This document shows positions 1-41,883 of a DNA stretch of 44,825 nucleotides, in pieces. The notes below the pieces were generated by a model that did no database searches, was not told the DNA's origin, and saw only the letters and a program-made list of their open reading frames with translations. Numbering within the stretch: the first letter of the stretch is position 1; the number at the start of each line of letters is the position of its first letter. Location of the stretch: positions 1 to 44,825 of the IMG/VR virus record IMGVR_UViG_3300045450_000021; one strand, written 5' to 3'. Made by a program: the position numbers and the translations under genes. The DNA comes from a virus.

Positions 1-127
1 ACATCACTCAAGTTCTGGAAGTGCTGGAGCGCGCTGGCGACGATGTTCGCGCAGCTGAGCGCCGCGCTACCGAAGCCGCCCAGGCCCGTGTTGCCGCCAT
101 CTCTCAGATGGGCGAGCAGTACAACTG
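1..127. repeat. Terminal duplication, copy 1 (identical to 44699-44825); marks a circularly closed contig
   Basis: The first 127 nt are repeated exactly at the window end. The capsid ORF reads in frame through the junction once the overlap is removed. Confidence 0.95.
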
Positions 128-1393: not shown

Positions 1394-1816
1394 TTGAACC
1401 GAATGGAAGACCAAGCGAAAGACGACTTTTTCACCATCGAGCTGTCCGCTGCGACCGTCATTGACGGTGAAATCGCCGTGGCCGGTGAAGTGGTCGAGGT
1501 GTCCCGCAAAGAGGCGGAGAACATCATCGGTCGTGGCCGTGCCACCCTGGCAAGCCCGGAGAAGCTGGCCGAAATCGAGAAGCGCGCCCAGGAAGAGGCC
1601 AAGCAGATCAAGGACTACCAGGAAGCCCAGCTGGTCGCCCAGATCGCCGGTCAGAAGCAGGCCGCCGACAAACTGTCCGCTCGCAAGGAAGAGCTGGAGA
1701 AGCTGACCCTGGACGCCCTGAAGGCCCTGGCTGCCGACAAGGGCCACGTCCTGGGTGATGCGACCAAGAAGGCCGACATCATCGAAGCCATCCAGAAGGC
1801 CGAGCAGGGCGAGTAA
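1394..1816 (+). CDS. Head-associated protein (decoration/scaffold-like) with a C-terminal SAP/HeH-like motif
   Basis: 140-aa ORF with an AGAGG RBS. Central coiled-coil region. C-terminus LTLDALKALAADKGHVLGDATKKADIIEAIQKAE resembles Rho-N/SAP helix-extended-helix motifs. Confidence 0.6.
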   Translation: MNRMEDQAKDDFFTIELSAATVIDGEIAVAGEVVEVSRKEAENIIGRGRATLASPEKLAEIEKRAQEEAKQIKDYQEAQLVAQIAGQKQAADKLSARKEELEKLTLDALKALAADKGHVLGDATKKADIIEAIQKAEQGE

Positions 1817-2136
1817 TGCCATCGCCGGCCTGGGAAGACCTGGACGCCTTCCTACAGCTGGACGTGACCGGCGGGTTCGCTGTGCCCGCCGTGTTCACGC
1901 TGTCTGACGGAACCACCAGGGAAGTGGCCGTCATCTTCGATGACCCCGCCATGGATGCAGAGGTGGGCGAGTACATCAAGGAAGACCAATCACCCTACGT
2001 GACCGGCAAGGAAACCGAGCTGCGCGGCATCCTGCGCGCGGACAGCGTAGTCATCAGTGGGCGCACCTATGGCGTGCTGTCGTCTCCCCGTCCCGATGGC
2101 ACAGGCATGGCCATCGTCCGCCTGGCCACCGAATAA
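1816..2136 (+). CDS. Putative head-tail adaptor / head completion protein
   Basis: 106-aa ORF with an ATGA-type start/stop overlap to its neighbours. Lies between the capsid and tail-completion genes. Confidence 0.5.
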   Translation: MPSPAWEDLDAFLQLDVTGGFAVPAVFTLSDGTTREVAVIFDDPAMDAEVGEYIKEDQSPYVTGKETELRGILRADSVVISGRTYGVLSSPRPDGTGMAIVRLATE

Positions 2137-2696
2137 TGCTTCACTTCGACATCAACTGGTCCGACCTGGCGCGCGTAGCCGGTGAGCTGGAGGCCAGCGA
2201 AAAGCAGATTCAGCTTGCCCTGCACCGCGCCCTGCGGCGCACAGAGGCGAGCCTGCGGCGCCTGTCGTCCAAGGGTCTTGCCCAGGAGCTTCAGTTGCGC
2301 GCCGTGGTTGCCCTGCGCAACCGCTTGAAGTCCATCAAGGTGCGCAAGAATGCCTATGGCCGTGGAGGCGATGGCGCGGCGCTCTGGTACGGCCTGAATG
2401 ATCTGCCTGTATCCAGCTTCAAGGGCAGGCCGCGCAGCACGGCTGCTGGTGCCAGCTTCAAGGGCAAGGAATTTGATGGCGCCTTCGTCGGCCGCAGCAA
2501 GTTCAAGGGCAAGCAAACCATTTTCAAGCGCGCCAGCGCGGCCCGTCTGCACATCCGTGAACAGCTGCTGGAGATAGAAGACAAGGCTGTGGTCTTCATT
2601 GAAGATCAGGTATTTGATAAAGTAGAAGAAATCTTCTGGCAGCACTTCATGCGCGACATCAAGGCCAGAGTCAAATTCAGGCTGGGTGAATACTGA
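2136..2696 (+). CDS. Lambda gpZ-like tail completion protein
   Basis: 186 aa. The N-terminus MLHFDINWSDLARVAGELEASEKQIQLALHRALRRT resembles the minor-tail-Z family. Translationally coupled. Confidence 0.55.
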   Translation: MLHFDINWSDLARVAGELEASEKQIQLALHRALRRTEASLRRLSSKGLAQELQLRAVVALRNRLKSIKVRKNAYGRGGDGAALWYGLNDLPVSSFKGRPRSTAAGASFKGKEFDGAFVGRSKFKGKQTIFKRASAARLHIREQLLEIEDKAVVFIEDQVFDKVEEIFWQHFMRDIKARVKFRLGEY

Positions 2697-3325
2697 TGGC
2701 CTACGCCAAAACCGAAATTGATTTCTCCGAGCTGGAAGAGGCCATCGTTCGCGACATCAAGGCCGCCTTCCCTGACCTGGCCACGGTCGAGTTCTACCGC
2801 GAGGACCGCACAGAGCTGCCGCTGCCAGCGGTGCTGCTGGAGATGGTCGAGTGGGAGCGGGACGAAGACCGCGACCCAGGCACCGAGCAGCTGCCCATCA
2901 TCGCGAACTTCGAAGCTGAAATCATCGTCAGCTTCAGGCGGGTGGAGGGGCGCAAGGCCAAGGCCGAGGTGCGCCGCCTGGCAAACGCCCTGGCCGCCTG
3001 GATGCACAACCGCCGCTGGACCTACCCTGACGGCAGGCTGAACGACAGTGGCAAGCCCAAGACCATGCCCACCGGCCCGGTGATGGTTTCGGGTGCGTAC
3101 CCGGATGACTTCCAGGGCCTGGAGAATGGCCGCAAGGGCGAGAAGCTGGACAAGTACGAAGTCTGGCGCCTGCCGTGGCAGCAGAGTGTTCACCTGGGTA
3201 AGACCGTATGGACTGAAGGCGGCGTGACACCTGGCCAGCCTCTGTTCTCCATGGCGCCCGATATTGGTCCGCCGCATAAGGACGACTACCAGGAGGGCTT
3301 AGATGGCCTCATTCGAAATCTCTGA
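2696..3325 (+). CDS. Putative tail completion / neck protein
   Basis: 209-aa ORF, coupled to both neighbours, located at the head-tail junction. Confidence 0.45.
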   Translation: MAYAKTEIDFSELEEAIVRDIKAAFPDLATVEFYREDRTELPLPAVLLEMVEWERDEDRDPGTEQLPIIANFEAEIIVSFRRVEGRKAKAEVRRLANALAAWMHNRRWTYPDGRLNDSGKPKTMPTGPVMVSGAYPDDFQGLENGRKGEKLDKYEVWRLPWQQSVHLGKTVWTEGGVTPGQPLFSMAPDIGPPHKDDYQEGLDGLIRNL

Positions 3326-3884
3326 CATCCAGCGCATGCTGGCGAACATGATCCGCGTTGGCGTTATCGAAGAGCTAGACGCCGCGAATGCGCGCGTGAA
3401 GGTCAACGTCTCTGGCCAGGTTACTGACTGGGTTCCTTGGGGCACTGATTCAGCAGGGCGCGTGCGCAAGTGGTCACCCAAGCAAGTGGGTGAGGAGGTC
3501 GTGCTGTTCTCGCCCTATGGTGACATGTCCCAGGCAATCGTCGGCTTCTCGCTTTTCCAAGACCAGTTCCCCGCCAACGATAACAACATGGGCAAGGAGA
3601 CTGCCACCTTCGCTGATGGCACGAGCGTGTCCTATGACCAGAAGGCCGGCGCCCTGACCATCAACGTTTCTGGCGGCGGCCTGGTGAGCGTCCAGTGCAA
3701 GACGGCGACCGTCAAGGCATCGGAGCTGATCACGCTGGACACTCCCAACGTCCACTGCACCGGCAACATCAAGGCCGATGGCGAAGTCTCGGACAAGGTC
3801 CGCGCCATGTCGGCTGATCGCGCGATCTACAACGGCCACACCCACCCGAACAACGGCGGTAGCCCACCCACCCAGAAGCAGTAA
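3303..3884 (+). CDS. Baseplate assembly protein V (P2 gpV-like spike)
   Basis: N-terminal LANMIRVGVIEELD...VKVNVSGQVTDWVPW and C-terminal IYNGHTHP motifs are typical of gpV. Confidence 0.85.
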   Translation: MASFEISDIQRMLANMIRVGVIEELDAANARVKVNVSGQVTDWVPWGTDSAGRVRKWSPKQVGEEVVLFSPYGDMSQAIVGFSLFQDQFPANDNNMGKETATFADGTSVSYDQKAGALTINVSGGGLVSVQCKTATVKASELITLDTPNVHCTGNIKADGEVSDKVRAMSADRAIYNGHTHPNNGGSPPTQKQ

Positions 3885-3888
3885 CGGC

Positions 3889-3928
3889 AAAACCCCAAGT
3901 GGAAGGCCAGTGACATGGCGGGCATCCT
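3889..3928 (+). promoter_or_regulatory. Late box copy 1: AAAACCCCAAGTGG-N20-CATCCT, predicted late promoter for the W-J-I-fibre operon
   Basis: Exact 14-mer plus a fixed 20-nt spacer plus an NANNCT hexamer. 23-nt identity with copy 2 (GCAAAACCCCAAGTGGAAGGCCA). Confidence 0.6.
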
Positions 3929-3934
3929 CCCGCC

Positions 3935-4273
3935 ATGCAAGGTACTAACGCGCTTACGGGAAAGGCCCTGGATGGTATAGCCCACCTTCGCCAGTCCATC
4001 ACAGACATCCTGACGACGCCAATTGGTAGTCGGGTCATGCGCCGCGAGTACGGAAGCCGCCTTCCACGGCTGATCGACGCGCCGACCAATCGCGACACCT
4101 TGCTGGATATTTACGCAGCAACGGCCGAGGCTCTGGCCCGCTGGGAACCCCGCTTCACCCTGACCAGCGTCCAGGCCACCAGCGCCGCCCCTGGCAGGGT
4201 CCAGCTGGACCTGACCGGCGTCCACAAGCCTGACGGCCAGACGATAACGATTCAGGGGGTTGTCATCCAATAA
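3935..4273 (+). CDS. Baseplate wedge protein W (GPW/gp25 family)
   Basis: HLRQSITDILTTPIGSRVMRREYGSRLPRLID matches the P2 gpW signature. Confidence 0.85.
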   Translation: MQGTNALTGKALDGIAHLRQSITDILTTPIGSRVMRREYGSRLPRLIDAPTNRDTLLDIYAATAEALARWEPRFTLTSVQATSAAPGRVQLDLTGVHKPDGQTITIQGVVIQ

Positions 4274-5172: not shown

Positions 5173-5869
5173 CCATCTGCTGCCGCCCAGCGCCACTGAG
5201 CAGGAGCGCGCCATATCGCTGGCCACCGCCAGGCTGGGTGACGTTCCCACTGGTGCGCGCCAGGCGTGGAACCCTGACACCTGTCCGGTGGAGCTGCTGC
5301 CTTGGCTCGCCTGGGCATTCAGCGTCGATGAGTGGGACCCGAACTGGACCGAAGCCGAGAAGCGCGGCGTCATCAATAACAGCTTCTTTGTCCACCGGCA
5401 CAAGGGTACCATAGGCGCCATCCGCCGCGCCCTGGAGCCGCTGGGCTACCTGATTGACGTGGTGGAGTGGTGGGAGACGACGCCGAAGGGCGAGCCCTAC
5501 ACCTTCAGCATTGTGATGGGCACCGGCAGCAAGCCAGTGACGCCTGACCTTTACGACAAGGTAGAGCGCATAGTTCTGACCTACAAGAACCTGCGTTCTC
5601 ACCTGCGAAACCTGACAGTCAAGACAGAGATTCGCGGCAAGTCATTTGCCGGCGCGCTGCTTCAGGACGGCAATGAAACGACCGTCTACCCGTACAACAT
5701 TAGCGAGATTCAGAGCGTCGGACACGCCGTAACAGGCATCATTGTCCAGGACGCCACAACCGTCACGATTTACCCCGACTCATACGAACAGGACGCGGCC
5801 GGATACCTGGCATCATCGCAAGAACTCTGGAACGTCGCGAACATCACATTGCCCGGAATGCTGAACTGA
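5162..5869 (+). CDS. Tail protein I (P2 gpI-like)
   Basis: LLPPSATEQERAIS...CPVELLPWLAWAFSVDEWDPNW...HRHKGTIGA is the gpI signature. Confidence 0.85.
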   Translation: MMSSHLLPPSATEQERAISLATARLGDVPTGARQAWNPDTCPVELLPWLAWAFSVDEWDPNWTEAEKRGVINNSFFVHRHKGTIGAIRRALEPLGYLIDVVEWWETTPKGEPYTFSIVMGTGSKPVTPDLYDKVERIVLTYKNLRSHLRNLTVKTEIRGKSFAGALLQDGNETTVYPYNISEIQSVGHAVTGIIVQDATTVTIYPDSYEQDAAGYLASSQELWNVANITLPGMLN

Positions 5870-5870
5870 T

Positions 5871-7610
5871 ATGGCAACCTCCAAAGAATTACTAGACCAG
5901 GCGGCTGCGCTGGCCAGGCCGGCAGCGCAGATCATTCATGACATCGCAAATGGCGACGACCAAGCGGACATTCAGACCGCCAACGGCCCAGTCCCATCAA
6001 TGGCCAAGCAGTCTAGGACAAATCGTGAGCTGGTCATGGAAATTCTGTCCGGCGCTTTCACCAGCGCAGCTGAATTTGGCGTGAAGGGCGACGGATCATC
6101 CGACGACCTGGCAGCCATTGCGCTGGCAGTCGCTAGCGGAAAGCCAATCTGGTGGCCGAGCGGAACGTATGGGTTAACGAATACCCTTACAGTTTCTCAG
6201 GCTCAGACCTGGATAACTGCTGGCAAGGTCAAATTTGTTTCCATGATGCCTGCCGGAAGCCCTGTAAGACCGTTGTTCGACTTCATAGCAAAGATCACCA
6301 GCTATGGTGACTTTTCAGTGGACCATAGAGCGAACACGATTGGCTATGCCCCTCCTGACGTATACCAGGGAAACCCAATTGCAGGTAGCGCGATACTTGT
6401 CCAAGGTGATTGGTCATCTGTTGAAGATTGGCATATTTTCAACGCATGGGACAACGGAATATCAGCAGTAAGACTTAACCAAACGACTGGCAAAGAGGTC
6501 GCTGGCTCCCCTAAGTTCGGAAGCTTCAGAAATCTGAAGACAGTCCTTTGCGGGGTTGGCGAGCATATCAACCCTGAAACTCCAGGAAAGATCGGCGCTG
6601 GCGTTGATGTTGCCTCGGCATCGGCATGGACTGTTGATGACTGCATAGATTATATGAGCTATACAGGCTTCATTCTTGATATTGGAGCCGGAGCCCAGTG
6701 CCAGTTCAGCAACTGCGTGGCTTTCTTTACTAAGGTTGACTCTAATAATCCTCTGAACGGCTCTGGTCATGGATTCTACTCAGGGTCAAGCGAAAGCAGC
6801 TTTGTCAACTGCATATCTATCGAGTCCGAATATAGAGCCTGGAGAATCGATGAGGTTGGCACCGACTTTGTCAATTGCCATGCATACTATCCCAAGCAGG
6901 AAGGCGTCTTCATTAAGGCTGGTCAGTTCAGGGGCAGCTTCCGCATCAAGGGCGCCGGGGCTAAGCAAGCAAATACCTATGACGCAGTCCTTATAGATAG
7001 CTCTGCCCGTGCAATCACCGAGCTGGAGCTTGATCTTCACACGACTGGTAGCAACCACCGCTGGGGCGTCAATGCTGTAGGCAATAAAACAATCGATGCT
7101 CACGTTCACGGATCGGTTACCGGAACAACTGGACTTGTAAATCGGCAGAACTACAACATAGGAACATTCCTGCAAAACGCAGCAATCGGCGCAGGTAAAC
7201 GATTTGCAATAAATCGTGATGTGCCAGGCATGGAATGGGATGTTTACGGCAGAATGCGTGCATCTGCTGACAGGGCAAATAAAAACTATGCGCTGGAGAT
7301 ATTCGGAAACGACACGGACAACGGAACATTTTTTGTAGAAGACTATGCGACACCAGCAAAAAGGATGGCCATGGGTTATGATCCGGCCAATGATGCCTTT
7401 GTGGTGCAGGCAATCCATGCCGGGGTTGCGAAAAAGCCTCTACTGCTGAACCCGTCCGGTGGGTCGGTCATGATTGGGACTGGAACCTGGCAGGAGCCAG
7501 CAAGACTTGGGAACTACCGTATCTGGGTAGATGGAAGCGGAAGATTGAGGATCAAGAGTGGCGCCCCAACATCAGATGGCGACGGCTCAATAGTCGGAAC
7601 ACAAGCATAA
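5871..7610 (+). CDS. Tailspike/tail fibre with a pectate-lyase-like right-handed beta-helix domain (putative depolymerase)
   Basis: 579 aa. FGVKGDGSSDDLAAIALAVASGKPIWWPSGTYGL resembles the start of Pectate_lyase_3 / GH28-like beta-helices. Visibly lower GC than the flanks. Confidence 0.65.
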   Translation: MATSKELLDQAAALARPAAQIIHDIANGDDQADIQTANGPVPSMAKQSRTNRELVMEILSGAFTSAAEFGVKGDGSSDDLAAIALAVASGKPIWWPSGTYGLTNTLTVSQAQTWITAGKVKFVSMMPAGSPVRPLFDFIAKITSYGDFSVDHRANTIGYAPPDVYQGNPIAGSAILVQGDWSSVEDWHIFNAWDNGISAVRLNQTTGKEVAGSPKFGSFRNLKTVLCGVGEHINPETPGKIGAGVDVASASAWTVDDCIDYMSYTGFILDIGAGAQCQFSNCVAFFTKVDSNNPLNGSGHGFYSGSSESSFVNCISIESEYRAWRIDEVGTDFVNCHAYYPKQEGVFIKAGQFRGSFRIKGAGAKQANTYDAVLIDSSARAITELELDLHTTGSNHRWGVNAVGNKTIDAHVHGSVTGTTGLVNRQNYNIGTFLQNAAIGAGKRFAINRDVPGMEWDVYGRMRASADRANKNYALEIFGNDTDNGTFFVEDYATPAKRMAMGYDPANDAFVVQAIHAGVAKKPLLLNPSGGSVMIGTGTWQEPARLGNYRIWVDGSGRLRIKSGAPTSDGDGSIVGTQA

Positions 7611-10056: not shown

Positions 10057-10083
10057 GCCGTCCTTCGGGGCGGCTTTTTTATT
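10057..10083 (+). terminator. Rho-independent terminator
   Basis: GCCGTCC-TTCG-GGGCGGC hairpin followed by TTTTTTATT. Confidence 0.8.
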
Positions 10084-10088
10084 CCTGC

Positions 10089-10128
10089 AAAACCCCAAGT
10101 GGAAGGCCAAACACGCACCTGCAAGACT
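10089..10128 (+). promoter_or_regulatory. Late box copy 2: AAAACCCCAAGTGG-N20-AAGACT, predicted late promoter for the sheath-to-D operon
   Basis: Exact 14-mer immediately after a terminator and 65 nt upstream of the sheath ATG. Same spacing and hexamer class as the other copies. Confidence 0.65.
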
Positions 10129-17146: not shown

Positions 17147-17223
17147 TGGCGACCCCGGCAGGAATCGAACCTGCGACATCCGACTTAGAAGGTCGGCGCT
17201 CTATCCGGCTGAGCTACGGGGCC
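17147..17223 (-). tRNA. tRNA-Arg (anticodon TCT), full length with encoded CCA
   Basis: The reverse complement folds as a cloverleaf: 7-bp acceptor stem (one G-T pair), GCTC/GAGC D stem, CCGAC/GTCGG anticodon stem with loop CTTCTAA, GCAGG/CCTGC T stem with loop TTCGATT. Confidence 0.9.
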
Positions 17224-17526: not shown

Positions 17527-18768
17527 GTGCTCACCGATAAGCGCATCCAGGCCACCATCCGCACGGCCACGGCAGAGGTCACATTGAAGGACAGCGACGG
17601 CACCCGTGGCGCGGGCATGCTGGCGCTCAGGGTTCGCCCCGGAACCGGCGGCACCCGAGCCACCTGGATGGCCACCTGGAAACGGGACGGAAAGCGAGGC
17701 AGCAAGGCGCTGGGCAACTACCCTGAGTTGTCCCTTGCCGAGGCGCGCGAGAAGTTCGCGGATGAGGTCCGACCGCTAATCCAGGCGGGCAAGGCCCCCA
17801 GCGAGGTGGCGTCGGGCGAGAAGGGCGCGACGGTCGAAGCCCTGGCCCTGGCTTACATCGAGAGCCTGCGGACGAATGGTAAGACCAAGGCCGATGAGTA
17901 CCAGCGCACCCTGCTGACGGGTAAGTACCCTGTCTGTGGTCTCCTGGGGCTGAACCGGCTGGCGAAGGACATCGAGCCCGACGACGTGGCGCGGGCGCTC
18001 AAGATGACCGACCTACGGGGAGCCAGGCGCCAGGCCGACGTGGAGCGCACCATCTTGGTTGCCATGTTCAACTATGGAATCCGGTCCACGCACGACTACC
18101 GAGCCAAGTCCCGCCGTGATTGGGGCATCAAGGTGAACCCCGCCGCTGTCATTCCGCGCGATACCGGTGCCGTGGTGGCCAGAGAGCGCAACCTGTCAGC
18201 CGAAGAGCTGAAGGCGGTCTGGGACAACGCGCCCGACCAGACTGGCGACGTGCTGCGCCTGATCATCGCCTGTGGCCAGCGGGTGTTCGAAACCATCCAG
18301 GCGGATGGCAAGGACGTGGACCTGGAGTCAGCGCTGTGGACCATGCCGGCAGCCAAAACGAAGATGAAGGCGCGCCCCCATTACGTGCCGCTGCCGCCAC
18401 AGGCTGTGGAGATTTTCCGGCGCCTGAAGGAACTGCACGGGGATGGACCTCTGTTCCCGGCGCGAGCTGGCGCCAAGGGTGTGCGCATAGGCATCCCCAG
18501 TGTCAGCCGTGGCGCCTCGCGCATGTCGTGCTGCGATCCCTTCCAGCCTCGCGACCTGCGCCGCAGCTGGAAGTCCAGGGCTGGTGACGCTGGCGTGGAC
18601 CGGTTCACGCGCGATCTGATCCAGCAGCACGCGCGGAACGACACCGGATCGAAGTTTTACGATCACGCCGACTATCTTCCGCAGATGCGCGAGGCCATGC
18701 AGAAGTGGAGCGAGTGGCTTGCGAAAGCCCTGGCCGGAAAGCAGTTGCAGGAGTTGGAGGCGGCTTGA
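17527..18768 (+). CDS. int: Tyrosine integrase, P4-type (DUF4102-like N-terminus)
   Basis: GTG start with an AGGAGA RBS. N-terminal LKDSDGTRGAGMLALRVRPGTGG...W.ATWKRDGKR. C-terminal DLRRSWKSRA...QQHARND...YDH catalytic-region pattern. Confidence 0.85.
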   Translation: MLTDKRIQATIRTATAEVTLKDSDGTRGAGMLALRVRPGTGGTRATWMATWKRDGKRGSKALGNYPELSLAEAREKFADEVRPLIQAGKAPSEVASGEKGATVEALALAYIESLRTNGKTKADEYQRTLLTGKYPVCGLLGLNRLAKDIEPDDVARALKMTDLRGARRQADVERTILVAMFNYGIRSTHDYRAKSRRDWGIKVNPAAVIPRDTGAVVARERNLSAEELKAVWDNAPDQTGDVLRLIIACGQRVFETIQADGKDVDLESALWTMPAAKTKMKARPHYVPLPPQAVEIFRRLKELHGDGPLFPARAGAKGVRIGIPSVSRGASRMSCCDPFQPRDLRRSWKSRAGDAGVDRFTRDLIQQHARNDTGSKFYDHADYLPQMREAMQKWSEWLAKALAGKQLQELEAA

Positions 18769-24720: not shown

Positions 24721-25317
24721 ATGACCAGACTCACAAAGGAAATGCGTAGCCAGATCATCGCCAATGCAGTAGAGAAGGCGGGTCTGAACGCCAGGATTGA
24801 AAGGAACACCAGCGAACGCAAGCAGTGGGCAGAAGATGTCCGGCTTGACAGCGTCGGCGGACCAGAGGAAGACAGTCGCCTGCTTGAGCTTCAGAATCAG
24901 ATGGAATCCCTTATCGAATCTGTTCCTAAGGGAATTCGAGGTGGCGTCACGCATTACAAAATTTTCGACACGAACTCGAATATCAACCTGAACCTGGCGG
25001 GGGCAAACCTTCGAATTCGCGTCGATAGTCAAAAGCCTTCCCGGCTGTCTCACGTTATCGCAGCAGACAATCCTCTGGTTCAGCGTTTCTATGACCTTGA
25101 GGATGATACCAGGCTTACCGAGTCCGAGAGAGAACGCATCACCGTCAACGTCCGCGCCGTCATCGAGCAGGCCAACACCATCAAGCAGCTGCTGGAGATG
25201 TGGCCCGAGTGCGTCGAGCTGATGCCAGCAGTGGAAGAACGCAAGGCGACCCTGCCAACCGTGAAGGTGGCCGACCTGAACGCACTGGTGGGGCTGCCCA
25301 CCGACGCGATGAAATGA
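24721..25317 (+). CDS. Hypothetical protein (198 aa)
   Basis: AAGAGG RBS. Lower-GC 5' half. No motif I can name with confidence. Confidence 0.6.
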   Translation: MTRLTKEMRSQIIANAVEKAGLNARIERNTSERKQWAEDVRLDSVGGPEEDSRLLELQNQMESLIESVPKGIRGGVTHYKIFDTNSNINLNLAGANLRIRVDSQKPSRLSHVIAADNPLVQRFYDLEDDTRLTESERERITVNVRAVIEQANTIKQLLEMWPECVELMPAVEERKATLPTVKVADLNALVGLPTDAMK

Positions 25318-25544
25318 AAACCCACTGCCGCTGCCGCAGCTGCCAGGCTCGCAAGGTGCTCAAGCAGCACCCTGACGAGTACCTGAGACAGCCGAAATGC
25401 TGGGGTTGCGGCGCCAGAGACTGGAGGCAGGACAGGTGGATGCAGAACCGCAAGCAGACCACCTGCCACGCCGATTGCTACCACTTCCCGCACCGGATGG
25501 GTTCCGCCGAGTGCAAATTCACCAAGACAGGCGAGTACAAATGA
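25314..25544 (+). CDS. Cys/His-rich zinc-binding protein (76 aa)
   Basis: MKTHCRCRSCQ...CWGCGA...CHADCYHFPH...C. ATGA-type coupling on both sides. Confidence 0.55.
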   Translation: MKTHCRCRSCQARKVLKQHPDEYLRQPKCWGCGARDWRQDRWMQNRKQTTCHADCYHFPHRMGSAECKFTKTGEYK

Positions 25545-26473
25545 AGAGCTTCAAGGCGATGATCAAGGATGGTGAAATCAAGCGCGCCGACGCGATGAAG
25601 GCGCGCCTGGAAGACCTGCACGAAGAACCCGGCTTCAACCTGCGGGCCGAGGGCGAGGACCTGGAGCAGTCCATCAGCGACTTGGCCGAGTTCATCGCGG
25701 CCGGTGGCCAGATCCCAGCGCTGGAAGTGCGCCCGCGTGCTGAGGGTGGCCTGTGGCTGGTGGACGGCCATCGCAGGTCCCGCGCCCTGCGCAGGCTGGA
25801 TGCTGAAGGCCGCCTGCCTCGCGTCGATGGTGAAGCCTGGGTGGCCATCGTGGCCTTCACCGGGAACGATGCCGACCGCGTCGCCCGCGTCATCACCAGC
25901 CAGGAAGGTCGCAAGCTGTCGCCCCTGGAGCTGGCCGAGGGCTACAAGCGCCTGGCCGCGTTCGGCTGGACCACCGAGCAAATCGGTAAGGCGGTGGGCA
26001 AGACCCGACAGCACGTTGACCAGATGATGGTCCTGGCTGGCGCCAACACCGACGTGCAGCAGATGGTTAAGGCCGGCACCGTGTCGGCCGCTACCGCCGT
26101 CGAGCTGGTCCGCGAGCATGGCGAGGATGCCGGCAAGGTGCTGGCCACCGAGCTGGAGAAGGCCAAGGCGCAGGGAAAGGCGAAGGTAACCGGTGGGACA
26201 ATGAAAGGCCCCAGCGTTCCGCGCAGCCTGCTGGATGACCTGCACGCCGAGTCCACCAAGCTGCACCAGGCGCTGAGCAGCGACGATCACGCCATGCTGG
26301 AAGCCTTCCACCGTGGCAGCATAGACGGCGGCACCATCGCCGTGCCGGTGGAGCGCCTGCTGCACCTCCACCTGGTCCTGGAGGAAGCCCAGCGCGTACT
26401 GGATGAGAAGAACCAGCGAGCCCAGGAGAAGGCGAACAAGGCCAAGCAGCAGGAACTGGAGGTGCAGGCATGA
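25541..26473 (+). CDS. ParB/Srx-like N-terminal-domain protein
   Basis: IPALEVRPRAEGGLWLVDGHRRSRALRRL is a ParB-box-like motif. HTH-like region ELAEGYKRLAAFGWTTEQIGKAVGKTRQHV. Confidence 0.75.
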   Translation: MKSFKAMIKDGEIKRADAMKARLEDLHEEPGFNLRAEGEDLEQSISDLAEFIAAGGQIPALEVRPRAEGGLWLVDGHRRSRALRRLDAEGRLPRVDGEAWVAIVAFTGNDADRVARVITSQEGRKLSPLELAEGYKRLAAFGWTTEQIGKAVGKTRQHVDQMMVLAGANTDVQQMVKAGTVSAATAVELVREHGEDAGKVLATELEKAKAQGKAKVTGGTMKGPSVPRSLLDDLHAESTKLHQALSSDDHAMLEAFHRGSIDGGTIAVPVERLLHLHLVLEEAQRVLDEKNQRAQEKANKAKQQELEVQA

Positions 26474-27591
26474 TCCGCCTCCAGCTTCATCTGGGCAACT
26501 GCCTGGACATCCTAAGGACCATGCCCGAATGCTCGGTCGATTCCATCGTAACAGACCCGCCCTACGGCCTTGCTTTCATGGGCAAGCGCTGGGACTACGA
26601 CGTGCCGAGCACCGAGATCTGGGCTGAGTGCCTGCGCGTGCTCAAGCCTGGCGGCCACCTGCTGGCGTTCGCCGGCACTCGCAGCCAGCACCGCATGGCC
26701 GTCCGCATCGAGGATGCCGGGTTCGAAATCCGCGACATGATCGCCTGGGTCTACGGGTCGGGATTCCCGAAGTCGCTGGACGTGAGCAAGGCGATCGACA
26801 AGGCGGCGGGAAACCAGCGCGGCACAACGCCAGATATTCGTAATGGCCCTAACACTAAACCGACGAAGGGGGACAAATACAGCGGCGGTTATGAAGGCCA
26901 ATCGAACACTGACGCAGGTCCAGTTTCCGAAGATGCGGCCCGATGGCAAGGGTGGGGCACCGCCCTCAAGCCCGCCCTGGAGCCAATCACCGTAGCCCGC
27001 AAGCCGCTAGCCGGCACTGTCGCGGCAAACGTGCTGGCACATGGGGCTGGGGCGCTGAACATCGACGGATGCCGGGTGCCTGGCGAGAGCACAATGCGGA
27101 CCACTGGCAAGGTGCTTTCTTCAAAAGGCGCGGCAGGAGGCGCGTGGAGCGCTCAATCTCATGAGCTGAGCGCCCGTGATGAGGTCATGGCCACTGGTAG
27201 CGAACTGGGCCGCTGGCCCGCCAACCTGATCCACGATGGCAGCGACGAGGTTGTGGCGCTGTTCCCGACAGAGAAGAGGCAGAGCGCCGCCCGGTTTTTC
27301 TACGCCCCCAAGGCAAGTAAGCGCGACCGTGGTGAGGGCAACACGCACCCTACCGTCAAGCCTACCGATCTGATGGCCTACCTGTGCCGCCTGGTGACCC
27401 CACCCGGCGGGATCGTGCTGGACCCGTTCATGGGCTCCGGCTCTACTGGCAAAGCGGCCATGCGCGAAGGCTTCCGCTTTATTGGCTGCGAGCTGGATGC
27501 TGGTTATTTCGAGATTGCAAAGGCTCGCATCAAGGCCGCACAACCCGCCGCAGACAACGACAACGGCGAACCATTGGAGCAAACAGCATGA
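26470..27591 (+). CDS. DNA methyltransferase (N6_N4 family, beta class; probably m6A)
   Basis: DPPY motif (SIVTDPPYG) near the N-terminus. AdoMet motif LDPFMGSGSTGKAA near the C-terminus. Confidence 0.85.
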   Translation: MIRLQLHLGNCLDILRTMPECSVDSIVTDPPYGLAFMGKRWDYDVPSTEIWAECLRVLKPGGHLLAFAGTRSQHRMAVRIEDAGFEIRDMIAWVYGSGFPKSLDVSKAIDKAAGNQRGTTPDIRNGPNTKPTKGDKYSGGYEGQSNTDAGPVSEDAARWQGWGTALKPALEPITVARKPLAGTVAANVLAHGAGALNIDGCRVPGESTMRTTGKVLSSKGAAGGAWSAQSHELSARDEVMATGSELGRWPANLIHDGSDEVVALFPTEKRQSAARFFYAPKASKRDRGEGNTHPTVKPTDLMAYLCRLVTPPGGIVLDPFMGSGSTGKAAMREGFRFIGCELDAGYFEIAKARIKAAQPAADNDNGEPLEQTA

Positions 27592-34047: not shown

Positions 34048-34175
34048 GTAAGCGCGTCTGCTACAGGTGCTTGCACGTTAGCGAGCCTGCCCGTCACTTC
34101 TCCAGCAGTGCCAAGATTTGGTATCTCGGCTGCATCAACTGCAAGTGCGGCGTCTTTTTTGGGGGTGACGCATGA
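34044..34175 (+). CDS. Possible small zinc-ribbon protein (43 aa), GTG start
   Basis: CYRC...CINCKC. Its stop overlaps the next ATG. Confidence 0.35.
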   Translation: MSKRVCYRCLHVSEPARHFSSSAKIWYLGCINCKCGVFFGGDA

Positions 34176-34582
34176 TCCTGCTGACCTGCCCCCGCTGCCA
34201 CAAGGCTGACGAAGAATGCCAGTGCTGGCCGCTGGTGAGCATCGCCCAGATCGAAGCCCGCTGGGGCATGCCTTTCTCCCAGCTACTGGAGGACCTGGCC
34301 GAACAGGACTTCTCCATGCGCCAGGCGGCCATAGCGCTGGGCTGCAACAGGGAGGCGCTGCGGGTCTACGTTGCCAGCATGGAACGCAGCCCATGGGCGC
34401 CCAGGGAGGTGGCAGCGGTGTGGTTACGCCAGACCGGCGAGACGATAACCGCAGCAGCCCGCCGGCTGGCCGAGACGCACACCATTAGCCAGGCTGCCAG
34501 GGTGCTGGGGTATTACAACTGCATGGGGCTGCGCAAAGCCCTGAAGGTGCGCGGGGTCACGGTCCAGTTCCAGCGCGCATGA
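34172..34582 (+). CDS. Putative DNA-binding protein (zinc ribbon plus two HTH-like segments)
   Basis: CPRCHKADEECQC, FSMRQAAIALGCNREALRVYV and HTISQAARVLGYYNCMGLRKAL. Confidence 0.55.
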   Translation: MILLTCPRCHKADEECQCWPLVSIAQIEARWGMPFSQLLEDLAEQDFSMRQAAIALGCNREALRVYVASMERSPWAPREVAAVWLRQTGETITAAARRLAETHTISQAARVLGYYNCMGLRKALKVRGVTVQFQRA

Positions 34583-34636: not shown

Positions 34637-34861
34637 ATGTCCAGTCCAGACTACCCACCAAAGCCTACAGAATTCGCCAGGATCAACGATCAGTGCAAGG
34701 CCGTGGGGCAGCACTACCAGCAGGGAGAAATGGCAGCAGGCGAAGCCCTGGCCACGCTGGAGCTATTGCGCGCTGACGCCGTGAGACTTCCAGCAGAGGA
34801 TGACCGCTCGCTGCTGCTTGGTCGCATCTACGCCACCAGCCTGACGATACGCAGGGGATGA
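34637..34861 (+). CDS. Hypothetical protein (74 aa)
   Basis: The ORF starts directly after the terminator. Its only SD-like sequence (AGGAG) lies inside the hairpin. Confidence 0.4.
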   Translation: MSSPDYPPKPTEFARINDQCKAVGQHYQQGEMAAGEALATLELLRADAVRLPAEDDRSLLLGRIYATSLTIRRG

Positions 34862-34877
34862 CCCCTTGGGACCACCG

Positions 34878-34903
34878 AACCCGGCCATCGAGCCGGGTTT
34901 TTC
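34878..34903 (+). terminator. Rho-independent terminator
   Basis: AACCCGGC-N6-GCCGGGTT followed by TTTC. Confidence 0.75.
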
Positions 34904-34953
34904 ATGCCGGCAGATTGCCACCAGCGGCTAGCGGCGATGCGAAGCCCCTGCGA

Positions 34954-35183
34954 CTTGTCCCACTTGGCCCCAATTTGGGACAAGGAAATTGACCCCTGGT
35001 CCCACACTAAACCATTGATCTAGATAGCCTTTTTACCCTTTGGGACTACTAGGGACAACGTATTAAAAGAAATAGGGGGGCGTAGTAGCAATACGCCATA
35101 ACGCCTATAGGCTTTATAGAAACAGTGGTCCCTCTTGTCCCTTGGTCCCAAATCTGGTCCCAAGTGCTGGCCCCTTGTCCCTA
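34954..35183. repeat. Iteron/operator-like array: about 12 copies here, plus one at 34866, of T(G/T)GnCCC(A/T) or its complement GGGACnA, flanking an AT-rich core
   Basis: + orientation at 34955, 34964, 34997, 35126, 35135, 35143, 35155, 35168 and 35175. Inverted at 34866, 34975, 35040 and 35051. AT-rich segment 35059-35124 with hairpin 35079-35097. Confidence 0.8.
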
Positions 35184-35237
35184 GCGCATATACACTATCC
35201 CCCAAGTTGACGAATACATCCGATTACCGGGGATGAC

Positions 35238-35693
35238 ATGAAATTACCGCGAAGCGTGCAGGAGATAGCCGACGTGATCGGGACTGACCAGGCGTTATAC
35301 CTGGTGGGGCAGATGCCAAGGTTCAAGAACACCACCAAGGGCGGCTATCAGTGCGTGATGTACGTGCCCACCAAGTCCAGGCTGACCCAGCGGCATGAGC
35401 TGGTGCGCATCCTTGGCCTGATCGACGCTGGAAGGCTGTGCGAAGCATTCGGCGGGGAAATCATCCAGCCGGCCAACTGCGCCGAGATATGCCGGGCTCA
35501 CCGGGACCGCAGCATCATCCTGCTGGCAGATGAGGGCATGCCACCGGCACAGCTCGCAGAGCTTACCTGCGTGTCCGAGCGGCACGTTCGCAAGCTGTTA
35601 CGGGAAAAACCCCAAGTGGTTCACATCCACGCGAATGACAACACTCCCGCGCGTGAGCAGCGCCAACCACTACCTGACGCCATTGCGGTCTAA
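35238..35693 (+). CDS. Mor/C-family late transcription activator
   Basis: ...CEAFGGEIIQPANC...HRDRSIILLADEGMPPAQLAELTCVSERHVRKLLRE matches the Mu Mor/C pattern (FGG..h.hP, R..I, C-terminal HTH). Confidence 0.65.
   Translation: MKLPRSVQEIADVIGTDQALYLVGQMPRFKNTTKGGYQCVMYVPTKSRLTQRHELVRILGLIDAGRLCEAFGGEIIQPANCAEICRAHRDRSIILLADEGMPPAQLAELTCVSERHVRKLLREKPQVVHIHANDNTPAREQRQPLPDAIAV
35606..35645 (+). promoter_or_regulatory. Late box copy 3: AAAACCCCAAGTGG-N20-AACACT, predicted late promoter for the lysis/packaging operon, embedded in the 3' end of the activator gene
   Basis: Exact 14-mer with the fixed spacer and hexamer class. The next gene starts at 35701. Confidence 0.6.
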
Positions 35694-38230: not shown

Positions 38231-38538
38231 CGTATATGGACCAGGTATCAGTTCCATTCTCCAGCCTGATTGACCGCAGCGGCACCATCGCCACCGCTGG
38301 AACCGCCCAGAAAGTGCTTCAGCAGAATTCCAGCCGTCGCGGCTGGCGCCTCCAGAACAACAGCGATGCCGACCTGTACTTCAACGACACTGGCGGCACC
38401 GCTGGAATCAAGGCTGCCGGCAGCTACCGCCTGCGCGCTGGCGACTACTACGAATCGCCCCAGGCTAGCCGCCCAGGCTATGCGGTCAGCGTCATCGGTT
38501 CCAAAGCTGGTCAAGCCTTCAGCGCCGGGGAGTGGTGA
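38227..38538 (+). CDS. Small beta-rich protein of unknown function (103 aa)
   Basis: ATGA overlap with TerS. No recognisable motif. Confidence 0.6.
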   Translation: MTYMDQVSVPFSSLIDRSGTIATAGTAQKVLQQNSSRRGWRLQNNSDADLYFNDTGGTAGIKAAGSYRLRAGDYYESPQASRPGYAVSVIGSKAGQAFSAGEW

Positions 38539-38540
38539 TC

Positions 38541-39824
38541 ATGCCCATGACCACATCCGTAAGCAGCGCATCTGCCGCGCCGAGCCTGAGAAACTGGCTT
38601 GTGAAGGGCCTTTTCGGCAAGATGAAGACGTTCACCGGCAACCCGAATGCAACCCCGGTGGTGACCAATAGCCCAATGACCTTCATGTGTGTGATGGAGG
38701 TGGAGACTTCGGCTTTCATCGGCGTGCGTATCCGCGTCCCAAACCTGCACACCGCACCGATTTCCGGGGTCAAGGTGGCCGTCCAGGTGGGCTCCAACTT
38801 CCCTGGCAACACCGACGCGCACTACTACCTGACGCCTGACCTGCCGGATAACACCGGCTGGGTGCCATGCACATTCAATGGCGCCGCATCTGGCACCCTG
38901 GACGCGCAGCTGTCGTCCGAAGCGCACTCGCTGACTGCCTTCGACTTCACGCCGCTGAAGTCAGTTGCGCGGATCGGTGGGCGCGAGGGCACCACCCGTG
39001 CTGTGCTGGCGGTCAAGATCGAATTTCCGGCAGGCGCCGTGCTGTCTGGCCCCGTCAACGATGTCTGGAGCTGGCGCGTCGATGTCGCCGGCCAGAAACA
39101 CCGCCCCCTGCGCTGCGGCAAGATGGCCGTGGCGGGAATCACCACGCCCGCCAGCTTCACCATTGGCGGTGTCGCTGATGAAAACGTGGTCGTTCCGGTG
39201 GTCGAGTACCTTTCGGTCAATGCCGGATACCAGGAAATGCATGTGGGGGACTCCACAACGGAGGGCACCAATGGAGAAGTTCGGGGCTTCGGGGCCTGTG
39301 CGATTGCCACGCTGGCGGCATCTACACCGGAAAGGCCGTTCGAATACTTCAACTGTGGCATGCACGGCATGGCGCCACCGATTTATGGGCCGGCAGCCAT
39401 GGCACACCTGGACTTCGTCAGGCCGCACGTCCTGTTCTATCAGCCCTATTCCATCAACAACACCCCGGTTGGTGGCATGTCCGTTGCTGTCGAGGCTGAC
39501 GACTGGAACTGGACGATGCAGGTAGTCCGTGCCGCCCAGCGTGCTGGTGTCGGCCGAGTTCACCTGCTGGAGGGCCTGCCGGTTGACCCTGGCTTCCGTA
39601 ACACCGGGGCGGGCGACCAGAAGCGCCGCGACTTGAACGCCCTGCTGGCGAAGTTCTCCGGTGGCGCCACCGTGGTGCAGGGCTATTCCCTGCCCATGAC
39701 AGGCGCCGTCAACGCCAGCGGCCAGACCACCTTGCCGGCCGGCGCATCTGCCGATTCTGCCCACCCGAACGCTGGGAAATACATCGAGATGGCGGACAAG
39801 GTCGCGCCCTACGTGGTGCTGTAG
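38541..39824 (+). CDS. Two-domain protein with a C-terminal SGNH/GDSL-type hydrolase domain
   Basis: Block I HVGDSTTEG, block II-like FNCGMHG, block III-like YSINN, block V DSAHPN. GGGGAG RBS before the ATG at 38541. Confidence 0.65.
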   Translation: MPMTTSVSSASAAPSLRNWLVKGLFGKMKTFTGNPNATPVVTNSPMTFMCVMEVETSAFIGVRIRVPNLHTAPISGVKVAVQVGSNFPGNTDAHYYLTPDLPDNTGWVPCTFNGAASGTLDAQLSSEAHSLTAFDFTPLKSVARIGGREGTTRAVLAVKIEFPAGAVLSGPVNDVWSWRVDVAGQKHRPLRCGKMAVAGITTPASFTIGGVADENVVVPVVEYLSVNAGYQEMHVGDSTTEGTNGEVRGFGACAIATLAASTPERPFEYFNCGMHGMAPPIYGPAAMAHLDFVRPHVLFYQPYSINNTPVGGMSVAVEADDWNWTMQVVRAAQRAGVGRVHLLEGLPVDPGFRNTGAGDQKRRDLNALLAKFSGGATVVQGYSLPMTGAVNASGQTTLPAGASADSAHPNAGKYIEMADKVAPYVVL

Positions 39825-39825
39825 C

Positions 39826-41883
39826 GTGAAGCCGACCGTCGAGCAGTTCAGCAACCTGCGGGGCGTGGTGTCCGCCCTGCATCGCGCCATGCAGAACCTG
39901 GTTCCACCGCCGCCGCTGATGCCTTCCGAGTGGGCAGAGGCGAACGTTCTCATCCCGGTTGGCAACGCCAAGCCTGGCCCGATCCGCTTCGACAACGCCC
40001 CGTACCAGCGGGGCATGATCGACGCGATTGCAGAGCCTGGCGTGCGCCGCGTCTCGATGATGACTGGCGCCCAGCTGGGCAAGACCACCGTTCAGCAGTG
40101 CTGGACGGGGTACTTCATCGCCCATGAACCGCGCTCGCAAATCATGGTTCAGCCCACCCAGGGTGACGTGCAGACGTACCTGGAGACGAAGCTGCGGCCG
40201 ATGCTGGACGCAAACCCCTCCATCAGCAGCAAGATGGCCAAGCAGCGCGGTCGGGAGGGCGTGAATAACAGCCGGATCATCTCCTACATCGGGGGCTGGC
40301 TGATGTTCAGCTGGGCGGGCTCGCCCAAGACCCTGCGCGGCCGTTCTGCGCCGGTCACCCATGCCGACGAAATAGACGGTTACGAAGCCTCGCCCGAAGG
40401 CGACCCTGGCGAGCTGCTTGCCCAGCGCTCGGCATCCTTCGGGGACGATGCGCTGCGCACCGAGTCCAGCACACCCACCATCAAGGGTGAAAGCCGGATC
40501 GAAACGGCCTTCCAGCTGGGCGACCAGCGCCGCTACATGGTCCCTTGCCCCGACTGCGGACACCACCAGCACATGCGCTGGGAGCAGGTCACCTGGAGCG
40601 GGCGGCAGTCCACCAGCGTGGATGACTTCGAAAAGGATTTGCCCGGCATCGAGGCAGAAACCCACGAACCGGACACCGCGCTTTACGCCTGCGAGGAATG
40701 CGGCAGCCTGTGGGATGACGGCCAGCGGGTGGCTGCGATCCGCGAGGCCGAGCAGAACGGCGGCGGCTGGAAGGCAACCAGGGCGTTCCGAGGGCACGCC
40801 AGTTTCCACGCCCCGGAGATGCTGAGCACATTCCGGCGCCTGCGCGACATCGTGAAGTCCTACCTGGGCAAGATCGCCCTGGAGGACATGCAGTCGTTTG
40901 TGAACGTCAGCCTGGCGCTGACCTATGACCAGAAGGGCGAACAGGCCGACCCTACCGGTTTGATGAAGACGGCCATCGACTACCCTGCCGAGGTTCCGGC
41001 CGGCGGCCTCTACATCACCGCCGGGGTGGACATGCAGATGGACCGCCTGGAATGCGAAGTGGTGGCTTGGGGCGACGGTGAGCGCAGCTGGTCGCTGGGC
41101 TATCACGTCCTATGGGGTGACCCTGAGCATCCAGACGTGTGGGCGGACCTGGAAGACCTGCTGGCGTCCACCTACCAGCACGAAAGCGGCGCCGTTCTGC
41201 CGATCATGGCTGCCTGCCTGGATACCGGTGGCACCAACGGCATGACCCAGGCCGCCTATGAGTTCGCTAAGGGTAGGACTGGCCGCCGGCTGTTCGCCAT
41301 CAAGGGCATCTCCGGCTGGGACCGCCCTATCGTGGAGAAGCCGGAGCGCAAGCAGAGCGGCAAGGACGCGCGTAAGGTGGACCTGTTCAAGGTCGGCGTT
41401 GACCAGGCCAAGCTGACGGTGATGCGGCGCCTGTCGCGAACCATCGACCATGACCCGGAGCAGCCCGACCAGGGCGGCCATTGCTACTTCCCCAAGGACA
41501 GGGATGGCGAGTGGTATAAGCAGCTCACGGCAGAGAAGCTGGTGACCCGCTACATCAAGGGCCAGCCTGTGCGCGAGTGGCACAAGCCCGACCGCGCCCG
41601 AAACGAAGCCCTTGACTGCCGGGTGTACGCCCTGGCGGCGCTGAAGATCATGGCGCCATCCTTCAAGCGCCTGGCCGAACGCCTTGGCCTGGTCCAGCAG
41701 CGAGGGTTCAAGCCGCGCAAGGTGGAAGAGCAGCCTGTAAACGACAACGTTCCGGCGCCGCAAAGGGTTCAGGAAAAACCCCAAGTGGAAGAAAAGCCAC
41801 CCATTCCAGAGACTAAGCCCAAAATCAAGCGCTCAAAAGCTGCCGCAGCAGGTCGCGGCGGGGGTTGGGCGTCCAGATGGTGA
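39826..41883 (+). CDS. Terminase large subunit (lambda GpA-like)
   Basis: PYQRGMIDAI...SMMTGAQLGKTT plus the Zn-ribbon-like CPDCGHHQHM...CEECGS, as in GpA. GTG start 1 nt after the previous stop. Confidence 0.9.
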   Translation: MKPTVEQFSNLRGVVSALHRAMQNLVPPPPLMPSEWAEANVLIPVGNAKPGPIRFDNAPYQRGMIDAIAEPGVRRVSMMTGAQLGKTTVQQCWTGYFIAHEPRSQIMVQPTQGDVQTYLETKLRPMLDANPSISSKMAKQRGREGVNNSRIISYIGGWLMFSWAGSPKTLRGRSAPVTHADEIDGYEASPEGDPGELLAQRSASFGDDALRTESSTPTIKGESRIETAFQLGDQRRYMVPCPDCGHHQHMRWEQVTWSGRQSTSVDDFEKDLPGIEAETHEPDTALYACEECGSLWDDGQRVAAIREAEQNGGGWKATRAFRGHASFHAPEMLSTFRRLRDIVKSYLGKIALEDMQSFVNVSLALTYDQKGEQADPTGLMKTAIDYPAEVPAGGLYITAGVDMQMDRLECEVVAWGDGERSWSLGYHVLWGDPEHPDVWADLEDLLASTYQHESGAVLPIMAACLDTGGTNGMTQAAYEFAKGRTGRRLFAIKGISGWDRPIVEKPERKQSGKDARKVDLFKVGVDQAKLTVMRRLSRTIDHDPEQPDQGGHCYFPKDRDGEWYKQLTAEKLVTRYIKGQPVREWHKPDRARNEALDCRVYALAALKIMAPSFKRLAERLGLVQQRGFKPRKVEEQPVNDNVPAPQRVQEKPQVEEKPPIPETKPKIKRSKAAAAGRGGGWASRW
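41775..41814 (+). promoter_or_regulatory. Late box copy 4: AAAACCCCAAGTGG-N20-GAGACT, predicted late promoter for the head operon, embedded in the TerL C-terminal tail
   Basis: Exact 14-mer with the fixed spacer and hexamer class. The next gene starts at 41890. Confidence 0.55.

Follow-up and report, generated by a model that had tools for sequence, protein, structure and literature searches.

The viral DNA examined here (IMG/VR record IMGVR_UViG_3300045450_000021, positions 1 to 44,825; hereafter the window, meaning all 44,825 nt of it) carries five copies of an exact 14-nt repeat, each located upstream of a block of late genes and each followed at a fixed distance by a −10-like hexamer, together with a gene at 35238-35693 whose product is a candidate activator of these sites. 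The first 127 nt of the window (1-127) are an exact duplication of its last 127 nt (44699-44825). This duplication is the assembly overlap of a circular or terminally permuted genome, so the window represents a complete genome in a circular assembly, 44,698 bp long, and the repeat copy at 44538 lies upstream of a capsid gene that continues at position 1. Scans against PHROG, Pfam, and NCBIfam, combined with megablast, identified a temperate P2-tailed myovirus related to the Iiscvirinae and to the Pseudomonas phages Persinger and PPpW-3.

The 14-mer, AAAACCCCAAGTGG, occurs at 3889, 10089, 35606, 41775, and 44538, always on the + strand. A scan of the window confirmed this count, which had been reported in an earlier reading of the sequence (the original prediction), and placed the next-best match elsewhere in the window at three mismatches. 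When the genome was simulated 200 times with a second-order Markov model, the most frequent 14-mer occurred twice in 199 runs and three times in the other, compared with the five copies observed. A scan of viral contigs with the same 14-mer returned more than 100 single matches in unrelated contigs, which is the chance expectation at that database size and is uninformative. Exactly 20 nt after each copy lies a hexamer of the form nAnnnT, again as first reported (5/5 copies). This pattern is found at 3.7% of window positions, giving a probability of ~7e-8 for five of five at one fixed offset, before correction for the choice of offset. The 23 identical nucleotides claimed for copies 1 and 2 are likewise present (GCAAAACCCCAAGTGGAAGGCCA).

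Beyond the 14-mer, the repeat extends to a 20-nt box, GG(A/C)AAAACCCCAAGTGG(A/T)(A/T)n, for which the window form is GGAAAAACCCCAAGTGGAAG. Scanning the window with this box recovered five sites at three or fewer mismatches; all other positions had at least five mismatches, and none of them was followed by a suitable hexamer. Each unit thus consists of the 20-nt box, a free spacer of 17 nt, and the hexamer. Where a −35 element would be expected, the DNA reads (A/T)GGAA(C/G), which matches TTGACA at 2/6 positions and leaves no usable −35.

The sites had been proposed to precede the lysis/packaging, head, capsid, baseplate/fibre, and sheath-to-D gene blocks, and the PHROG, Pfam, and NCBIfam scans showed this assignment to be correct. 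Three of the five lie inside coding sequence and two are intergenic, one of the latter directly after a terminator. Candidate promoter 1 (35603-35645, + strand; box 35603-35622, GGAAAAACCCCAAGTGGTTC; 17-nt spacer; hexamer AACACT, 35640-35645; predicted start ~35652) is situated in the 3′ end of the candidate activator gene, in DNA encoding the disordered tail of the protein. Downstream of it are a holin-like gene (ATG 35701), which is probably the first gene served, and genes for endolysin, spanin, TerS, an unknown protein of 430 aa, and TerL. Candidate promoter 2 (41772-41814, + strand; box 41772-41791; hexamer GAGACT, 41809-41814; predicted start ~41821) lies in the 3′ end of the TerL gene (39826-41883). 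The next gene starts with the GTG at 41890, and the block comprises a head-tail joining gene, the portal gene, and a protease-capsid fusion. Within that fusion open reading frame (ORF), candidate promoter 3 (44535-44577, + strand; box 44535-44554; hexamer GACACT, 44572-44577; predicted start ~44584) occupies the linker region between the S78 protease part and the capsid part. Candidate promoter 4 (3886-3928, + strand; box 3886-3905; hexamer CATCCT, 3923-3928; predicted start 3935) falls in the 50 nt that separate baseplate genes V and W; downstream of it come W, J, I, and the tail fibre genes. Candidate promoter 5 (10086-10128, + strand; box 10086-10105, TGCAAAACCCCAAGTGGAAG; hexamer AAGACT, 10123-10128; predicted start ~10135) precedes the genes for the sheath (ATG 10167), tube, and tape measure and genes U, X, and D. 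The positions had also been described as PV- and PF-like; the site before the sheath gene is indeed PF-like, and the supposed PV-like site lies after V, directly before W.

A strong intrinsic terminator at 10057-10084 (+ strand; GCCGTCCTTCGGGGCGGC plus TTTTTTATT) ends the fibre block directly 5′ of candidate promoter 5, so transcription would stop there and have to restart. A second intrinsic terminator (1359-1384, + strand) follows the capsid gene with no box after it, and terminators are annotated at the same place in phages Mica and Mano. The genes at 1394-3884 would then be transcribed by read-through past this terminator. Compared with shuffled sequences, matches to canonical sigma-70 promoters in the late region did not exceed chance (2 found against 3.3 expected, and 1 against 2.6).

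Conservation of the box and hexamer in related phages

We compared the window with 12 relatives, seeking repeated k-mers without an assumed motif. Nine were complete genomes (Persinger, PPpW-3, Mica, Mano, phiRSP, ep3, FoX1, Alexa, and HeidiAbel), and three were metagenomic contigs, with activators that share 90%, 69%, and 59% identity with that of the window. Hosts among the genomes checked include Pseudomonas, E. coli, Burkholderia, Ralstonia, Achromobacter, Xanthomonas, and Acinetobacter. Persinger, PPpW-3, Mica, Mano, phiRSP, ep3, FoX1, and HeidiAbel each contain exactly five copies of a box of their own at five homologous positions, namely the 3′ ends of the activator and TerL genes, the interior of the protease-capsid fusion, the V/W gap, and the DNA before the sheath gene, after the terminator. 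All three metagenomic contigs have a box at each homologous position within the fetched DNA. Alexa, an Acinetobacter phage with 49% G+C, has three exact copies of its box and no recognisable box at the promoter 1 position, where the homologous site was found in 12/13 genomes checked. A hairpin with a T-run stands directly before the sheath box in the window and seven of the relatives inspected and is absent in phiRSP and FoX1.

The box is nearly uniform within a genome, with 0-3 differences over 20 nt, and differs between genomes. It reads TGACAAACCCCAAGAAGAAG in ep3 and HeidiAbel, GGAAAAnCCGCAAGAGGAAC in Mano, GGAAATCCCACGGGAGGAAC in Mica, GGAAATCCCACCAAtGGAAC in phiRSP, GGAAATTCCGGACATGGAAC in FoX1, and GGAAAAAGCGCAGGATGAAA in Alexa. 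In Escherichia phage HeidiAbel_Bas97, the copies are located at 39193, 2426, 5165, 9467, and 13923 (GACAAACCCCAAGAAGA, one copy with two mismatches). Even the two Pseudomonas phages have different boxes, GGAAATCCCACAAGAGGAAC in Persinger and GGCAAACCCACAAGAGGAAC in PPpW-3. Uniformity within a genome combined with divergence inside one host genus argues that the reader of the box is phage-encoded and co-evolves with it.

An alignment of 47 sites located the conserved information only at box positions 1-19 and at hexamer positions 2, 4, 5, and 6 (A2 in 46/47, A4 in 40/47, A or C at position 5, and T6 in 46/47). The 17-nt spacer had no information content, and no conservation was seen upstream of the box, above −49. 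The flanks of the box, GGAAA and GGAA[C], are common to all relatives, and its centre is phage-specific. At the capsid site of the relative with the 90% identical activator, the spacer differs and the box is the same, while the hexamer is GAAACT instead of GACACT. At the same spacing in Alexa, the hexamers are CATAAT, TATAAT, and TAAAAT. Loss of the spacing or hexamer in relatives had been named beforehand as a check on the proposal; the layout of box, 17 nt, and hexamer is kept across the aligned sites. Judged from sequence, a hexamer at fixed distance together with a conserved box is the signature of a −10 element with an activator site.

Dyad symmetry was considered as a further property of the box and rejected. 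The core CCAAGTGG had been described as an imperfect dyad, and this description did not survive the comparison. The symmetry is not conserved across the 13 genomes, the window (CCA-AG-TGG) and FoX1 (GGAAATTCC) would have different centres, and the box is asymmetric and occurs in a single orientation.

Phylogenetic footprinting thus lends strong support to a predicted late-promoter regulon, as the original prediction had proposed, through the homologous positions, the fixed spacing, TATAAT in the relative of lower G+C content, the upstream terminator, and the lack of canonical sigma-70 promoters in the late region.

The candidate activator and alternative readings

The gene at 35238-35693 (+ strand) encodes a 151-aa protein that matches PHROG 836, annotated as 'late transcriptional activator', with E=2.8e-25, and 330 homologues were found. 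Every relative has a PHROG 836 gene, and it always stands directly 5′ of the first late promoter and lysis block, like C in Mu. The protein comprises an N-terminal alpha/beta domain, an FGGEIIQP linker, a helix-turn-helix (HTH) at residues 93-122, where Pfam reports HTH_23, and a disordered tail at residues 123-151. Its AlphaFold2 model has a predicted local distance difference test score of 82.6 and is confident for residues 1-122, with the tail disordered.

The original prediction had called this protein Mor/C-like, and the evidence on that point is divided. Its best PHROG is 836 and not 532, the Mu Mor/C family. Mu Mor and C, which are PHROG 532 members, also match phrog_836, with E-values of 1.2e-10 (residues 55-121) and 2.1e-11 (residues 59-134), respectively, and these matches cover the linker and HTH halves. 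Pfam Mor is matched by 15/38 activator homologues (best 9.8e-7). With hhalign, activator residues 64-122 aligned to Mor 57-114, pairing FGGEIIQP and the HTH with LGGGQVYIP and its HTH, at E=0.003 and a probability of only 11%; no alignment to Mu C was obtained. A Foldseek search of BFVD gave the Mano orthologue, termed 'Mor-like' by its depositors, as the sole significant match, and a sequence search against the Protein Data Bank (PDB) returned CatM matches at chance level. Our reading is that the protein represents a sister family of Mor/C with a common DNA-binding half and an N-terminal domain that has no detectable similarity.

We consider it likely, at a probability of roughly 0.72, that the five sites are late promoters, each composed of a phage-specific box for a Mor-like activator and a weak −10 element, and that they are read by the 35238-35693 protein, which is the probable activator. 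Each promoter would comprise an asymmetric 20-bp box at about −49 to −30, an unconstrained 17-bp spacer, and a sigma-70-type −10 element (A2, A4, (A5), T6). Host RNA polymerase holoenzyme alone would be unable to use the five promoters. We infer that the protein binds the box and recruits or activates RNA polymerase, as Mor and C do in Mu, and that transcription depends on it and begins at the predicted start sites. Expressed from its own upstream promoter, the activator would then fire promoter 1, embedded in its own gene, along with the other four. Unit 1 would supply the lysis genes, TerS, and TerL, and unit 2 the head-tail joining, portal, and protease-capsid genes. Unit 3 would be internal and yield a nested scaffold-capsid product from an ATG at 44635. 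Unit 4 would provide W, J, I, and the tail fibres on a leaderless mRNA beginning at the W start codon, and unit 5 would run from the sheath gene through D.

Several observations weigh against this assignment. The window protein fails the Pfam Mor (PF08765) threshold (E=0.19; 12.2 bits versus a cut-off of 24.9). Foldseek comparison of its model with the PDB returned generic HTH domains, with Mor (1RR7) outside the top 50 matches, a comparison of monomer models that Mor's intertwined dimer may defeat. Across 120 homologues, the tail residues encoded by the box do not covary with HTH residues. The −10 hexamers of the window are weak, matching TATAAT at 2-3 of six positions. The box is asymmetric and oriented, with its centre near −40, in contrast to the 16-bp imperfect dyad of Mu centred at −43.5. 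Another HTH protein, with weak HTH_23 and HTH_28 matches, is encoded just 5′ of the activator gene at 34172-34582. Finally, a search of the literature found no transcription or binding data for any member of the group.

In the same 120 homologues, the strongest coupling of the tail is with loop residues 31-37 (normalised mutual information of ~0.6 versus a 95th percentile of 0.40). This signal is inseparable from clade structure, which may be all that it reflects.

Some of these points would suit late promoters whose box is read by a different phage protein, or which need a cofactor, the 34172-34582 protein or an unannotated early protein being the candidates. The position of that HTH gene, the missing covariation between box-encoded residues and the activator HTH, and the sub-threshold Mor score all fit this reading. 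The 34172-34582 protein, however, matches no PHROG or NCBIfam family, and it is the PHROG 836 gene that accompanies the first late promoter in every relative; we regard a different reader as unlikely.

A promoter for an alternative sigma factor, either a host factor of the extracytoplasmic function (ECF) type or a phage sigma-like protein, would take GGAAC at −34 to −30 as its −35 element. ECF promoters have the form GGAAC-N16/17 followed by a short −10, with GGAAC as the −35 consensus, which the end of the box resembles, and GGAA(C) here ends exactly 17 nt before the hexamer. Consistent with such a reading, the activator HTH weakly matches Sigma70_r4_2 (E=0.0026), as do 16/38 homologues. The hexamer, however, keeps the positions of a housekeeping −10 and is TATAAT or TAAAAT in Alexa, unlike an ECF −10. 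Scans of the activator family and of 24 other window proteins against Pfam or NCBIfam gave no Sigma70_r2 match, and the activator, with an N-terminal domain modelled as alpha/beta, is too short to hold sigma regions 2 plus 4. Moreover, the 14 nt 5′ of GGAAC are also conserved and phage-specific, and a host sigma factor could not follow a box centre that varies among phages of one host genus. The housekeeping-type −10, the lack of a sigma region 2 protein among those scanned, and the phage-specific box centre make an ECF-sigma reading distinctly improbable.

That the repeats act as RNA elements (in processing, antitermination, or translation), as a non-transcriptional DNA signal, or as a selfish in-frame cassette is highly improbable: the three in-ORF copies share one frame and are hence transcribed from upstream promoters, and a conserved hairpin overlaps the V/W site, but Rfam gave no match, the conservation is promoter-like (box, unconstrained 17-nt spacer, and A2/T6 hexamer), pairing is not conserved at 4/5 sites, two copies are intergenic, one directly after a terminator, and every copy precedes a functional gene block.

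Predicted intragenic promoters, a candidate internal capsid start, and gene W

The three intragenic boxes are read in one common frame, giving the peptide E-K-P-Q-V in the window and E-[K/I/N]-P-[Q/R/P]-[E/V]-[E/D] in every phage, so the activator, TerL, and the protease linker have in common a short peptide dictated by promoter DNA. Activator residues 131-136 (window 35628-35645) include a near-invariant A-A-N-D-N (N133 in 117/120, D134 in 113/120, and N135 in 111/120 homologues). A shorter (A-)N-D-N is found upstream of the box in the TerL tail (window 41740-41760) of 6/9 translated genomes. The −10 element explains A-A-N-D-N only partly, since clades differ by one codon in where the peptide sits relative to the box. 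The motif resembles the beginning of the ssrA tag, AANDENYALAA.

A single ORF of ~690 aa (~44078-44825 joined to 1-1343) joins the prohead protease (Peptidase_S78) to the major capsid protein, and the homologous gene in relatives matches Pfam Peptidase_S78 plus Phage_capsid. An in-frame internal ATG at 44635-44637 (+ strand), preceded by TGAGG, lies 51 nt after the predicted start of promoter 3. The peptide from this ATG is MEKILRDASGN, and its conserved form, M-x-EKILRDA-GN, is found in 9/9 phages. The same nine all have a conserved in-frame Shine-Dalgarno sequence and ATG 39-51 nt after the predicted internal capsid start, which predicts a nested scaffold-capsid product without the protease domain.

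At the V/W site, placing the hexamer at −12 to −7 makes the predicted start at 3935 coincide with the A of the W start codon, so the W mRNA is predicted to be leaderless. The distance from the hexamer to the W ATG is 6-7 nt in 8/8 complete relatives inspected. Positions 3914-3937 on the + strand form a perfect 9-bp inverted repeat (CATGGCGGG / CCCGCCATG; arms 3914-3922 and 3929-3937), with the −10 hexamer as its 6-nt loop and the W start codon in its 3′ arm. The RNA hairpin has a predicted energy of −20.8 kcal/mol (z = −3.4). Its arms vary between phages and are complementary in most; the alignment pair counts understate this conservation, having been made with wrong Persinger coordinates. On read-through RNA, the hairpin would mask the W start, and a leaderless transcript would lack the 5′ arm. 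Rfam detected no family at any of the five sites; a tRNA gene, described below, was its sole match.

With a little less than an even chance of being right, these features would together define a distinct, undescribed branch of Mor/C-like systems, marked by an asymmetric box of ~19 bp, a portable cassette of ~60 bp in one frame (E-[KIN]-P-Q-E-E ... N-D-N), an internal capsid promoter that sets the protease:capsid ratio, and a leaderless W whose start is hidden by a hairpin.

Other features of the window were noted. The ~380 nt upstream of the activator gene (34860-35190) contain 12 or more copies of TKGTCCCA / TGGGACMA, which point in either direction. The array flanks an AT-rich stretch at 35060-35122 and lies downstream of a hairpin with a T-run at 34880-34905. 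Relatives have 7-mer arrays of their own at the same place (GGTGACA x7 in Mica, GTGACCA x5 in Persinger, and AGTGCAA/GTGCAAC x6 in Alexa). The arrays resemble either an iteron-type origin or a set of operators that would control the late activator. Between TerS and TerL, the 430-aa ORF (38532-39824) has no match in PHROGs, Pfam, NCBIfam, or PADLOC, the last of which returned nothing for any of the unannotated window ORFs scanned. It is present in the closest metagenomic relative (5349-6632 of the contig); Persinger, PPpW-3, and Mica lack it, and their TerS and TerL genes are direct neighbours. Encoded in the early region are an Nmad5 'nucleotide modification associated' protein and an N6/N4 DNA methylase (24721-25317 and 26470-27591) beside a ParB-HTH protein (25397-26473), and this cluster may be a DNA-modification module. 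The tRNA gene (17150-17223, − strand; Rfam 69 bits) matches a stretch annotated as tRNA-Arg in Serratia phage MQ-4 and is located between the last tail gene and a tyrosine integrase gene (17527-18768), in what is probably the attP region.

Significance and comparison with known systems

Full-text searches found no published description of the motif or its promoters; a prior mention in the PPpW-3 genome paper (PMC4292507) is possible. Jilinvirus isolates of this phage group have been described as 'not well characterized' (PMC11990801). The predicted regulon is apparently unpublished, clean, and testable, and its principle is not in itself surprising. It gives a complete, testable late-transcription map for a widespread phage group made up of Iiscvirinae, Harrisonburgvirus, Hiroshimavirus, Micavirus, Manovirus, Foxunavirus, and numerous prophages and contigs from metagenomes. 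Several phages of the group are candidates for biocontrol or therapy. The phage-specific boxes would offer natural orthogonal activator/promoter pairs for studies of Mor/C-type specificity or for synthetic biology, and the predicted in-ORF promoters, nested capsid gene, and leaderless baseplate gene are of interest as expression solutions. HeidiAbel (Bas97 of the BASEL collection), a phage of E. coli K-12 in which all five sites recur, provides a convenient experimental system.

Among phage systems with activator-dependent late promoters, P1 may offer a likeness. Its late promoters (Lpa/gp10) combine a good −10 with a conserved, phage-specific element replacing the −35. That element is a 9-bp inverted repeat at ~−22, and Lpa is unrelated to Mor/C.

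The late promoters of P2, 186, and phiCTX (PP, PO, PV, and PF) also lack a −35 and are served by the zinc-finger activators Ogr, B, and Delta. In the window, the tail genes are arranged as in P2 (V W J I H G; FI FII E T U D), with one promoter directly before the sheath gene, like PF, and another in the V/W region, although this baseplate promoter lies after V and not before it. The P2 element is a dyad, TGT-N12-ACA, centred near −55, whereas nothing is conserved upstream of −49 across the 47 sites here. The candidate activator is an HTH protein, and no Ogr-type activator is implicated, though not every ORF was scanned for Ogr.

The closest parallels are with Mu. Its late promoters have a −10 and no −35, and they require a 19-bp region from −52 to −34 in which a 16-bp imperfect dyad has its centre at −43.5; protection by C extends over approximately −30 to −55, and the beta-strand linker (LGGGQVYIP in Mor) has been implicated in DNA binding (PMC2582627). 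The target of Mor is a pair of 5-bp inverted repeats with the same centre, −43.5 (PMC4390567), and a cryo-electron microscopy study proposes a tetramer contacting the alpha subunit's C-terminal domain, sigma region 4, and the beta flap (bioRxiv 10.1101/2025.05.02.651988). Like the middle and late promoters of Mu (Pm; Plys, PI, PP, and Pmom), which are served by Mor and C, the sites in the window have a recognisable −10, no usable −35, and an element of ~19 bp over the −35 region, at about −49 to −31. Both systems involve a small activator of 129-151 aa that combines a GG-x-h-x-h-P linker with an HTH in its C-terminal part. In both, several late promoters (predicted ones in the window) are scattered over the genome, and the first of them follows the activator gene directly and drives lysis genes. 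In contrast to Mu, the N-terminal half of the activator has no detectable Mor/C similarity, three promoters are embedded in coding sequence, and one activator appears to take the place of a Mor-to-C cascade. Because the box lacks the Mu dyad, we do not file the sites as plain Mor/C promoters; their sequence anatomy nevertheless suggests that they most likely work like Mor/C promoters.

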